DNA from: Cyanobacteria bacterium P01_D01_bin.156 | GTDB taxonomy: Bacteria; Cyanobacteriota; Cyanobacteriia; Phormidesmidales; Phormidesmidaceae | DNA: 61,528 nucleotides | Direction of reading: 5' to 3' | NCBI GenBank assembly: GCA_039024555.1 | Contig: JBCCQQ010000036.1 | Location: forward strand, 1 to 61,528 | Part shown: positions 23,712 through 25,759 of the stretch, one piece after another | Layout: every line of letters starts with the position of its first letter | Position numbering within the stretch: position 1 is the stretch's first letter | Notes under the pieces: model-generated | What the model was told of the DNA's origin: nothing | Seen by the model: the letters and a program-made list of their open reading frames with translations, nothing else | Databases searched by the model: none | Position numbers and translations under genes: made by a program

Positions 23712-24773
23712 TCAGGAGCTTGATTTGCCAATGCGCTCCAGGCCGAACTGAATCAGCTTATCAATCAACTGATCAAAGTCTAGGCCAGAAGCTTTCCACA
23801 GCATGGGGTACATGCTGGTCGCTGTGAATCCAGGAAAGGTATTAACTTCATTGATTAATACTTCACCGGTAGCTTCAATATAGAAAAAGTCAACCCTCGA
23901 TAATCCTGCTCCATCAATTGCTTGAAATGCTTGAATAGCTTGCTCTTTAATGATGTTGACTACATCATTAGGCAACTTAGCAGGAATGGTTAAATCAGCT
24001 TGACCACTGGTGTACTTAGTTTCATAGTCATAAAAATCAGCTGCAAAGCTAATTTCACCGATGACGGATGCTTTAGGGTTGTCATTCCCTAAAACAGCAC
24101 ATTCAACTTCACGGGCAACCACACTCGCTTCTACAATAATTCGGCGATCGTAGCTGGCAGCATTATCCAGTGCAGCTTCAAGTTCTTGACGATCCTTGGC
24201 CTTTGCAATACCCACGGACGATCCTAAGTTTGCTGGTTTGACAAAGCAGGGATAACCCAGAGCTGCTTCGATATCGTCGCAGAGTTTGGGAAACACACAG
24301 GGGTTAGAGTAAACTTGCGATCGCAAAACCTCCAGATATTTCACCTGAGGCAAACCTACCTTTGCAAACGCAGACTTCATGGCTAGCTTATCCATACCCA
24401 CCGCAGAAGCAAGCACGCCACACCCCACGTAGGGAGTTTGCATCAATTCAAACAGCCCCTGAATGGTCCCGTCTTCACCATTAGGACCATGGAGCACAGG
24501 AAACCAAATATCCACATCCACGTCTGCAGGGGGAATACGGTTGGTTGCAGAAACTGGATCATCACCAAAACTCAACGGCTCTCCATCAGTTAACACCGCC
24601 TCAGCATTTGTCACCCAAACACCATCTTTTCGGATATAAACGGGGATGATCTCATACTTCTCAGCATTACCCTTTAGCCTCAATCCTCGGGCAATCGCCT
24701 GGGCGGAGTAAATGGAGACCTCATGCTCCCCAGAACAGCCCCCAAACAGTAAACCGACACGAATTTTTGCCAT
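23712..24773 (-). CDS. ddl: D-alanine--D-alanine ligase
   Basis: [40 protein letters not shown] and [10 protein letters not shown]. Confidence 0.96.
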
Positions 24774-24996
24774 TAAGTTACCCCTTTAACGCCCTAAAAT
24801 GCTGTTTGCCAATTCCTCAGGAAACATAGCTAACCGTCAAAATATCATTAATGAATGGTCCTCTGTTGACTATTCGTAACAATTTTCGGTCCATGGGCCA
24901 TTACTTAACCACCAAGAATGGTAACGCTCTCAGAACTGTAGCCAAGGTAGGATAAGACTTCATCGGTTGACTGGCTCAGCACGCGCCCCCATGGGC

Positions 24997-25057
24997 AAAA
25001 AAAAACTCCCAAGCTCCAAAAGAGCCCAGGAGTTAGACATCAGGGTGCATCTACCAA
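24997..25057 (-). ncRNA. nsiR1: NsiR1-like small RNA, copy 1 (about 60 nt)
   Basis: Begins GGTAGATGCACCCTGAT, matching the NsiR1 5' sequence as I recall it; ends in a 13-bp hairpin plus U-run; TCCGGA lies about 35 nt upstream. Confidence 0.75.
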
Positions 25058-25085
25058 ATAACTGTCCACAGCACGACATCTAACT

Positions 25086-25091
25086 TCCGGA
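25086..25091 (-). promoter_or_regulatory. DIF1-like TCCGGA motif for copy 1
   Basis: TCCGGA is separated by 30 nt from GGTAG, i.e. at about -35. Confidence 0.7.
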
Positions 25092-25211
25092 CAGAACAAA
25101 AAATCTATATCATCAATAACGAACTGCATTCAGTGCAACACTTACTCCATCACATTTATTATCTAAATCTTTGCTTGCAAGTCACGTTTTGAGTCATAAC
25201 TGCAACAGAAC

Positions 25212-25272
25212 AAAAAAAGACCCCTAAGCTCCAAAAGAGCCCAGGAGTCAGACATCAGGGTGCATCTACCAA
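25212..25272 (-). ncRNA. nsiR1: NsiR1-like small RNA, copy 2 (about 60 nt)
   Basis: Same 5' sequence, offset 215 bp; hairpin differences from copy 1 preserve pairing. Confidence 0.75.
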
Positions 25273-25300
25273 ATAACTGTCCACAGCACGACACCTAACG

Positions 25301-25306
25301 TCCGGA
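25301..25306 (-). promoter_or_regulatory. DIF1-like TCCGGA motif for copy 2
   Basis: Same spacing to GGTAG as in copy 1. Confidence 0.7.
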
Positions 25307-25441
25307 CAGAACAAAAAATCTACCTGGAGTTACGGACTGTGCTCATCAGCTCAAAAAAACCATCAAGATTGTAGAGTTGGCGTGAAAAAACGAACATGAC
25401 CAGAGATAATGCCATTGGAACTTTGACCTGAAGCCAAATCT

Positions 25442-25759
25442 GTGAAGTATTTTTTCTTGTCCGATGGCTGGACCACTGGCAGGGTATGGGAATTCGGCGG
25501 CCTGTGGAACGAACTTGCCTGGCAGCGCAAACCCATCATTAAAAAACTAGAACTCTATATCGAGGAAGCTAGTGAAAAATTATGGCTTTATCAGGTTGAA
25601 GACGCTGTCCTCATGGTTGAAGTCATGCCTGCAGGAGCAACCAGCAATTCTATTGGGCAAGTCGTCCTTAAACGACTGATTTCCGCTGAGCAAGTCATTG
25701 AAAAGCTTTGTGAGACAACGATTTCAACTTCAGTTGTCGTATCTATCCCGGTCAAGTAA
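25442..25759 (+). CDS. Conserved cyanobacterial hypothetical protein
   Basis: MKYFFLSDGW..GRVWE.GGLW, WLYQVEDAVLMVEV and IGQVVLKRL look like a conserved small family; GTG start. Confidence 0.75.
   Translation: MKYFFLSDGWTTGRVWEFGGLWNELAWQRKPIIKKLELYIEEASEKLWLYQVEDAVLMVEVMPAGATSNSIGQVVLKRLISAEQVIEKLCETTISTSVVVSIPVK

Follow-up and report, generated by a model that had tools for sequence, protein, structure and literature searches.

NsiR1 is a small RNA that has been presented, in the available portions of the papers concerned, as an RNA of heterocyst-forming cyanobacteria (PMC6596454, PMC4030482). Here, two NsiR1 genes are described in tandem, upstream of ddl and on the minus strand of a contig from Cyanobacteria bacterium P01_D01_bin.156 (GenBank assembly GCA_039024555.1, contig JBCCQQ010000036.1; C36 in the contig numbering used below), the full 61,528 nucleotides (nt) of which are referred to as the window. 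Across the class Cyanobacteriia, NsiR1 genes with TCCGGA promoters prove to be the rule in genomes that carry hetZ, and this host is no rare case. As a tentative and in its entirety still doubtful reading, we propose that NsiR1, instead of being a heterocyst RNA, would serve as the small-RNA branch of an ancient cell-fate circuit built on HetR and HetZ and shared by essentially all hetZ-bearing cyanobacteria; that it would be made by HetZ-type sigma factors and would block, by feedback, the translation of a second HetZ-type sigma; and that a copy in the Nodosilinea/Leptothoe lineage would tie the circuit to peptidoglycan synthesis through ddl. The core of this mechanism, taken apart from its target, is likely: RNAs of ~59 nt would be made when sigma-HetZ is active and would act in trans.

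Two 112-nt direct repeats, at 24996-25107 and 25211-25322, make up the array and recur at a period of 215 nt from start to start, in agreement with an earlier note on this DNA that had described two ~110-bp units with a 215-bp period. Its features are as follows.

24996..25322, minus strand: whole array, two 112-nt units and a 103-nt unique spacer (repeat search, 95% identity)
24998..25056, minus strand: NsiR1 copy A, ddl-proximal, 59 nt, predicted start at T 25056 (RF02399, 56.3 bits, E 2e-8)
25213..25271, minus strand: NsiR1 copy B, 59 nt, predicted start at T 25271 (RF02399, 49.5 bits, E 9.3e-7)
25065..25091, minus strand: promoter of copy A, -35 TCCGGA at 25086-25091, 17-nt spacer, -10 TGGA at 25065-25068, 8 nt to T(+1) (read from the sequence)
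25280..25306, minus strand: promoter of copy B, -35 TCCGGA at 25301-25306, 17-nt spacer, -10 TGGA at 25280-25283, 8 nt to T(+1) (read from the sequence)
24997..25034, minus strand: intrinsic terminator of copy A, 14 pairs (6 G-C), loop of 3, stem 25004-25034, T7 tail (hairpin fold)
25212..25249, minus strand: intrinsic terminator of copy B, 14 pairs (7 G-C), stem 25219-25249, U-run (hairpin fold)

Read along the minus strand, each unit passes from a T-rich stretch (TTTTTTGTTCTG) through TCCGGA, 17 nt, TGGA, 8 nt and the T at +1 into GGTAGATGCACCCTGATGTCT, a hairpin and a U-run, which is the TCCGGA-N30-GGTAGATG layout given in the earlier note, and both units read as complete transcription units with promoter, RNA and terminator. 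When the whole window was compared with 4227 Rfam families, only two matches exceeded the threshold, both to NsiR1 (RF02399, gathering score 39 bits) and both covering model positions 1-60 of 60, that is, its full length; the proposed NsiR1 identity was thereby upheld. The 5' 18 nt equal the model consensus, the conserved 5' end being UGGUAGAUGCACC. Minimum free energies amount to -20.8 kcal/mol for copy A (z -3.0) and -23.7 kcal/mol for copy B (z -3.2) relative to shuffles, and seven to eight U follow the terminator stems. The hairpin and U-run of the earlier note were thus recovered, with a stem of 13-14 bp in the fold where the note had counted 13 bp. Of the 112 positions, 6 differ between the units. 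The promoter spacer accounts for two; the other four fall within the terminator stem and leave its pairing intact, with one compensatory change from A-U to G-C and two U-A/U-G swaps. An RNA of ~60 nt with the conserved 5' end and an intrinsic terminator is accordingly encoded twice, its transcript ends being predicted, and the tandem direct-repeat arrangement of Nostocales NsiR1 recurs here in two units. By family score and anatomy, both window copies are almost certainly real NsiR1 genes.

A 2026 study of Anabaena (PMC13342950), as far as its text and supplement are available, describes HetZ as a sigma factor that reads promoters with the DIF1 motif at -35 and gives the consensus as TCCGGA-N16-17-TGNA-N7-9-T(start), in which T-35, G-32 and A-30 are replaceable. 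The nine promoters aligned for this consensus included one nsiR1 promoter, and a 3.1-kb HetZ peak in chromatin immunoprecipitation covers nsiR1(1-12) and the hetF promoter and is lower in the hetZ4-201 mutant (both in the supplement of PMC13342950). In the window, both copies have TCCGGA 29 nt ahead of T(+1), each with a DIF1 promoter of its own, as the earlier note had claimed, and both promoters fit the strict sigma-HetZ consensus exactly (TCCGGA-N17-TGGA-N8-T). Strict-consensus matches number 37 in the 6.6-Mb genome, 16 of them outside long open reading frames (ORFs) and the two window sites included, and one such site lies ~110 nt upstream of the host's own hetZ while another stands just past the hetZ stop codon. 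TCCGGA in any context occurs only 632 times in the 6.6 Mb. On the strength of this fit, sigma-HetZ-type transcription of the window copies is predicted with good, if not full, confidence; a look-up of sequencing runs listed no RNA data set containing this DNA, a blank that counts neither for nor against.

The remaining NsiR1 sequences of the genome bring qualifications. Six matches over the cut-off were found at four loci, together with one weak match:

C36 (window): two copies
C17: tandem pair
C45: one copy
C39: one copy
C34:51881-51931 (locus L240), minus strand: diverged NsiR1-like sequence starting AAGTAGATGCACCCTGATGG, without TCCGGA upstream, adjoining gatB (32 bits, below the cut-off)

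Three points weigh against the reading. In the C17 pair and the C45 copy, TCCTGA, the permitted G-32 change of the consensus, is displaced by 1-2 nt and accompanied by TAGA-type -10 boxes; the C39 copy has TCCGGA at the usual distance but lacks TGNA; and the nsiR1 row for the hetZ4-201 mutant in the available supplement of PMC13342950 reads 'peak down' but 'expression up'. Because the peak falls while expression rises, the dependence of nsiR1 on HetZ alone is not simple. A second factor, HetZ', functionally near-identical to HetZ, is described by the authors of that study in the portion available.

Several further features of the host concern the same promoter type. The hetZ region (C1:85560-87954) holds a hetZ of 398 amino acids (aa), and the promoter past its stop codon precedes a 331-aa ORF without a Pfam or NCBIfam family, in the position expected of patU, the anti-sigma partner. 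The count of 632 TCCGGA sites is, by an estimate from base composition alone, well under expectation. The -10 box TGAAAT is common to three intergenic promoters of the strict sigma-HetZ type (C14:83773, plus; C14:74724, minus; C45:11759, plus), and two of them have no downstream ORF of at least 80 aa; those two may serve further HetZ-dependent small RNAs or small peptide genes.

The distribution of NsiR1 was surveyed in 151 genomes drawn evenly from the class, each at least 80% complete and the host included. The Rfam model matched in 85 genomes (84 over the cut-off) and the HetZ model, at E<=1e-60, in 86 (82 over the cut-off); both were found in 85, HetZ only in 1, NsiR1 only in 0 and neither in 65, and the per-family tallies of the two are equal except in one family. 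The single HetZ-only genome, 96% complete in 350 contigs, gave no NsiR1 match. In these tallies related genomes are not independent and both features track the same broad groups, and the coupling of NsiR1 with hetZ is observed at the family level (~25 positive families), short of statistical proof. The suggestion in the earlier note of an ancestral circuit acting outside heterocyst differentiation agrees with this class-wide pattern, which also deprives the window of any rarity, and the circuit is likely older than heterocysts.

A second set of loci was obtained by scanning the 17-nt NsiR1 5' end in one genome per species, which gave at least 123 loci; the counts in this paragraph refer to the matches listed. 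In the NCBI taxonomy, Nostocales account for 20 of these loci and 12 other orders for 61, and 40 are unplaced; the other orders are Leptolyngbyales, Oscillatoriales, Nodosilineales, Coleofasciculales, Gomontiellales, Elainellales, Oculatellales, Spirulinales, Geitlerinematales, Synechococcales, Aerosakkonematales and Pseudanabaenales. Two listed loci had too little flank and were left out of the copy counts. Exact TCCGGA stands at the expected place in 134 of 209 distinct copies (Nostocales 53/79, other orders 48/80, unplaced 33/50) and TCCTGA in 31 of 209, 19 of these in the 12 other orders; only 6 of 209 are without any TCCGGA-like element. Nostocales loci are mostly arrays of 3-9 copies, and in the other orders 48 of 61 loci have a single copy and 13 have two to four. 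The copies were chosen by an exact 17-mer, and the counts are silent on the conservation of the 5' end itself. A hairpin directly precedes a T-run in 188 of 204 distinct copies; the two were counted per copy and not as column covariation because the hairpin lengths are too unlike for a trustworthy alignment.

This breadth bears on the idea that the window copies are decaying relics of a disused circuit, for which it can be said that the host has no known cell type that needs the circuit. Both copies have promoter, seed and terminator intact, their four stem differences keep pairing, and hetZ, its paralogues and hetR are all intact in the genome. All 9 sampled members of the host's family keep 4-7 NsiR1 matches, and the hairpin and T-run just mentioned are retained across taxa. 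Decay is accordingly a very improbable explanation.

The host assembly (6.62 Mb, 149 contigs, 47.1% G+C, 99% complete) encodes HetR (NF009718, 546.8 bits) and two nifH genes over the TIGR01287 cut-off, together with the following genes; hetR, hetF and nifH, which the earlier note had named as genes to look for, are thus all present.

C1:86648-87844: HetZ (NF037963, 626 bits against a cut-off of 550)
C17:20901-22217: HetZ paralogue, named HetZ-related by NCBI (NF037964, 617.6 bits against a cut-off of 612)
C33:57020-58144: second HetZ paralogue, named HetZ-related 2 by NCBI (NF037965, 588.6 bits against a cut-off of 400)
C19:77432-79903: hetF orthologue, 40-56% identity to the large ORF that adjoins the NsiR1 arrays at seven Nostocales loci

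No hetF was found in the window, so the placement next to hetF that marks the Nostocales arrays is missing, and the Rfam model found no NsiR1 copy on contig C19, which bears out the description of the array as lying away from hetF. Adjacency to hetF is treated here as a property of the Nostocales locus and not of the RNA family.

With hetR, hetZ, hetF and two nifH genes at hand, the host might be thought heterocystous after all and its array an ordinary NsiR1 locus. Heterocyst-formers constitute one clade, and Leptothoe and Nodosilinea are known as thin filaments that form no heterocysts. An RpoB tree was built from 24 genomes (23 named genomes from NsiR1 loci and the host). In it the host clusters with a pair of Nodosilinea genomes and one marine metagenome-assembled genome (MAG) at a Shimodaira-Hasegawa approximate likelihood-ratio support (SH-aLRT) of 97, outside the separate clade, with support of 100, that is formed by Nostoc, Calothrix, Dolichospermum, Tolypothrix and a strain labelled Plectonema cf. 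radiosum. The nearest named proteins are from Leptothoe, of the order Nodosilineales in the NCBI taxonomy: the HetZ-related-2 protein has 87% identity to that of Leptothoe kymatousa, and the N-terminal 400 residues of HetF have 88% identity to Leptothoe spongobia. The dispersed single copies and pairs also follow the pattern outside Nostocales rather than that of the 3-9-copy arrays. hetR, hetZ and patU have been published for non-heterocystous filaments (PMC11298460, available portion). A heterocystous host is therefore scarcely credible, and the host, a marine filamentous cyanobacterium, is very probably without heterocysts. This assignment draws on phylogeny and general knowledge of the groups, which counts as a weakness of the reading; the earlier note's 'probably non-heterocystous' stands by the RpoB tree and the Leptothoe-like proteins, whereas its argument from GC content is weak.

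As to what NsiR1 might act on, the 18-nt 5' end is kept across a dozen orders, which argues for a conserved partner. In a duplex screen, NsiR1 nt 1-26 were compared with positions -80 to +40 of 8987 ORFs of the host (mean -15.4, standard deviation 3.2 kcal/mol). The top match was trivial, an antisense overlap at the C45 copy; next in rank, and best of the non-antisense duplexes, was one in the leader of a 137-aa ORF at C48:7439-7852 (-32.2 kcal/mol). This gene was rejected as a conserved target on failing to appear in any of the 12 family relatives searched.

These results can be set beside the possibility that NsiR1 here is genuine and that its main targets are those known in trans from Nostoc (the hetF start, hetP-like genes) or strain-specific genes, the sites discussed below being coincidental or serving another purpose. 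Nostoc NsiR1 represses hetF and alr3234, according to the available part of PMC9045159, and in the host NsiR1 forms a duplex of -23.0 kcal/mol with positions -27 to -1 of the hetF start, slightly past the 5% quantile of the background (-22.7). The idea of hetF as a trans target shared across genomes found no support, the median z being -0.2 in 15 other non-heterocystous genomes and the shuffle fraction <=0.05 in only two (Stenomitos, 0.005; Thainema, 0.05), and the C48 leader, strong as its duplex is, cannot explain a 5' end conserved across orders when the gene is not found in relatives. From the evidence on hetF and the C48 gene, we consider such an assignment of targets unlikely.

The alternative that we favor, still short of an even case, is that the invariant 5' end would pair with the ribosome-binding region of the HetZ-related sigma mRNA and damp that sigma factor. 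A box, defined as the complement of NsiR1 nt 2-12 (GTGCATCTACC) with up to two edits, was sought in 360 nt around gene starts. It was present in 13 of 18 HetZ-related start windows (17 loci from 15 named genomes and the host); as for the controls, 253 of 2000 host upstream windows had a box, and so had 22 of the 176 remaining windows from those loci, whereas on the antisense strand the count was 1 of 18 and in front of HetZ-related-2 genes 1 of 10. The box preceded hetZ in 6 of 14 genomes, a weaker signal than at the HetZ-related gene. An in-frame ATG lies 6-17 nt past the box in 11 of the 13 box-bearing windows, which puts the box where the ribosome binds; in the host the HetZ-related start reads GTGCATCACT, 9 nt, ATG. 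Duplexes of NsiR1 nt 1-18 with the -40 to +20 window of the 11 ATG-adjacent boxes have a median of -17.2 kcal/mol, 9 of the 11 fall under the 5% quantile of 3000 host start windows, and the host site reaches -18.8 kcal/mol at a background fraction of 0.008.

Against this stand a number of observations. The box is missing from five of the 18 windows (those of two Symploca paralogues, two of the strain labelled Phormidium LEGE 05292, and one of Chamaesiphon), and in 2 of 13 (Nostoc, Vacuolonema) the best box is not ATG-adjacent; a separate duplex search gave a Calothrix-like site at -128 in Nostoc. The host's own hetZ leader, tried as a target, shows no pairing (-14.8 kcal/mol, background fraction 0.83). 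The box test was framed after the duplex output had been seen, its genomes are related, so that the counts overstate independence, and the duplex energies of the boxes are modest (-13 to -19 kcal/mol). The equation of NF037964 with hetZ' (alr0202) of Anabaena, moreover, is one that we infer ourselves. The outcome of the box test is suggestive and no more, and the HetZ-related mRNA is put forward only as a possible conserved target of NsiR1, predicted by base pairing. In the literature searched, no paper linking NsiR1 to a HetZ-family gene was found.

The immediate surroundings of the array comprise two genes.

23712..24773, minus strand: ddl, D-alanine--D-alanine ligase, downstream of the array (Pfam PF07478, Dala_Dala_lig_C; PF01820, Dala_Dala_lig_N)
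25442..25759, plus strand: 105-aa ORF (ORF105), divergent from the array (no Pfam family; conserved)

The position between ddl and a small hypothetical gene, given in the earlier note, is thereby confirmed, the end of copy A being 224 nt from ddl on the same strand. Past ORF105 lie a TolC-type outer-membrane gene, a DUF512 radical-SAM gene and uppP (bacA), with glnA 5 kb off. ORF105 has 74-78% amino-acid identity over 90 residues in 4 other loci with NsiR1 and ddl and shorter matches in 3 further loci, which are cut at their ends, and on this conservation ORF105 is judged to be a real gene. Its relatives are always divergent from the ddl-linked NsiR1 gene.

Among the at least 123 NsiR1 loci, a Ddl homologue occurs in 9 of those listed. 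Eight of the nine have NsiR1 immediately before ddl, with both genes on one strand (three Nodosilinea, MAG J06626_18, two Leptolyngbya-type genomes and two unplaced MAGs); the gene order differs in the ninth. The block ORF105 / NsiR1 / ddl was seen again in 7-8 other genomes, and MAG J06626_18 is the genome nearest to the host in the RpoB tree. The recurrence of this order in relatives indicates that the ddl locus is an old and stable position in that lineage. The ddl linkage of the array is not distinctive, as the same locus recurs in other genomes; what is specific to the host is that the NsiR1 gene is doubled.

Conserved neighborhoods of this kind invite an explanation in cis, in which the sigma-HetZ promoters of the ddl-linked copies mainly drive ddl by partial read-through of the terminators and raise peptidoglycan precursor synthesis where HetZ is active, the RNA being a by-product or second output. 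In its favor, the gaps between NsiR1 and ddl in the 8 other loci are ~50-130 nt as read from coordinates (224 nt in the host), the same-strand order is kept and the divergent ORF105 with it, a simple sigma-70 scan found no promoter between array and ddl, and HetF and PatU3 link the circuit to cell division in Anabaena (PMC9457339, available portion). These points are offset by the strength of both terminators (14 bp and T7-8), by the four additional copies at three other loci of the host without an adjoining ddl, and by the Nostocales arrays, which are not ddl-linked; a conserved neighborhood alone is weak evidence, and the sigma-70 scan is crude. We regard a mainly cis role as distinctly unlikely, and an RNA that acts in trans continues to be preferred.

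Other observations were made on the remaining NsiR1 copies and on candidate HetZ-type genes. The C45 copy (C45:39897-39949, plus strand, L241) has the top score of the genome, 62.2 bits; it is divergent from an oligopeptide-type ABC substrate-binding gene, overlaps that gene's long upstream frame, and has an slr0320-type radical-SAM gene on its other flank. Next to the weak C34 sequence, it may be mentioned that a Dolichospermum locus with the exact 17-mer (L062) also has gatB alongside (72% protein identity), and a gatB-linked NsiR1 relative may be common to Nostocales and the host lineage. DUF1822 partner genes were tried as a route to hetZ and set aside, as the five such genes adjoin sigma-like or unknown genes that are patchy among Nostocales, so that none of these is hetZ. 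A DUF1822 gene follows a sigma-like or unknown gene at C10:8596-10961, C10:44732-48853, C52:32697-36901 and C12:77902-82933, and at three of these four loci an ORF of ~800 aa comes next. An inverted repeat resembling a HetR site matched once in the genome and not adjacent to hetZ, and was likewise dropped.

A 432-aa protein on contig C28 was also considered as HetZ, its gene showing an NsiR1 duplex in the leader (-26.9 kcal/mol) and a downstream partner gene. It was rejected as a member of a four-member family without known function whose Nostocales members lack the downstream partner. The four proteins, of 420-460 aa and without Pfam or NCBIfam families, are encoded at C28:68445-69743, C17:17662-19017, C9:111792-113171 and C10:70139-71398, and the family is conserved in Nostocales as well. 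A distance of 1.9 kb separates the C17 member from the HetZ-related gene, and the C28 leader is among the ten best NsiR1 duplexes of the host genome. Sequence searches of the PDB with three HetZ candidates matched no HetZ structure.

Compared with known systems, the locus itself is ordinary: a further member of a known RNA family with a known promoter architecture. It resembles NsiR1 of Nostoc/Anabaena sp. PCC 7120, as described in the available parts of PMC4030482 and PMC9045159, in the ~60-nt RNA, which begins with UGGUAGAUGCACCCUGAU and has a short 5' hairpin and a Rho-independent terminator, in the individual TCCGGA promoter ~35 nt upstream and in the head-to-tail arrangement of slightly differing gene copies. 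[quoted passage not shown] The present array differs in having 2 copies instead of 12 and in lying upstream of ddl instead of upstream of and antisense to hetF, and the host differs in standing outside the heterocyst clade and in carrying five more matches elsewhere in its genome (four loci; four of the matches exceed the cut-off). Its promoters share with the sigma-HetZ promoters of Anabaena PCC 7120 the -35 element, the 17-nt spacer, TGNA and the 8 nt to the start (PMC13342950; PMC7377430, both in part), and the host HetZ passes the NCBI equivalog cut-off. The Anabaena regulon (hetR, patS, patX, patU, sigC and hep genes) serves heterocyst development, in contrast, which is likely lacking in the host, where recognition by HetZ is predicted.

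Outside heterocyst-formers, the literature searched yielded a single passing remark on NsiR1, that on RNA162 of Limnospira indica PCC 8005, an NsiR1-type RNA of a filamentous cyanobacterium without heterocysts, mentioned as a radiation-responsive transcript without analysis of promoter, distribution or target in the part of PMC8400943 available. Leptolyngbya sp. BL0902 offers another parallel, with patX-hetR and hetZ-patU as parts of the heterocyst core circuit and a predicted DIF1 promoter in an organism without heterocysts; unlike the present case, its study describes no small RNA and names NsiR1 0 times in the available text (PMC11298460). The role of HetR, PatX and HetZ in heterocyst-less filaments is an old open question (PMC11298460, in the same text), and NsiR1 is the earliest marker of an Anabaena cell in which the circuit is switched on (PMC4030482, available part). 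Because NsiR1 occurs with the same promoter type in 85 of 86 sampled hetZ genomes, the 70-nt promoter and the RNA provide a ready reporter for the firing of the circuit in non-heterocystous filaments, and the predicted box at the HetZ-related start is a concrete interaction, testable by mutation. Relative to the literature searched, what these comparisons add is that NsiR1 accompanies hetZ throughout the class, that it holds a conserved position next to ddl in one lineage, and that the HetZ-related gene has, at its start, a conserved box with which NsiR1 is predicted to pair.

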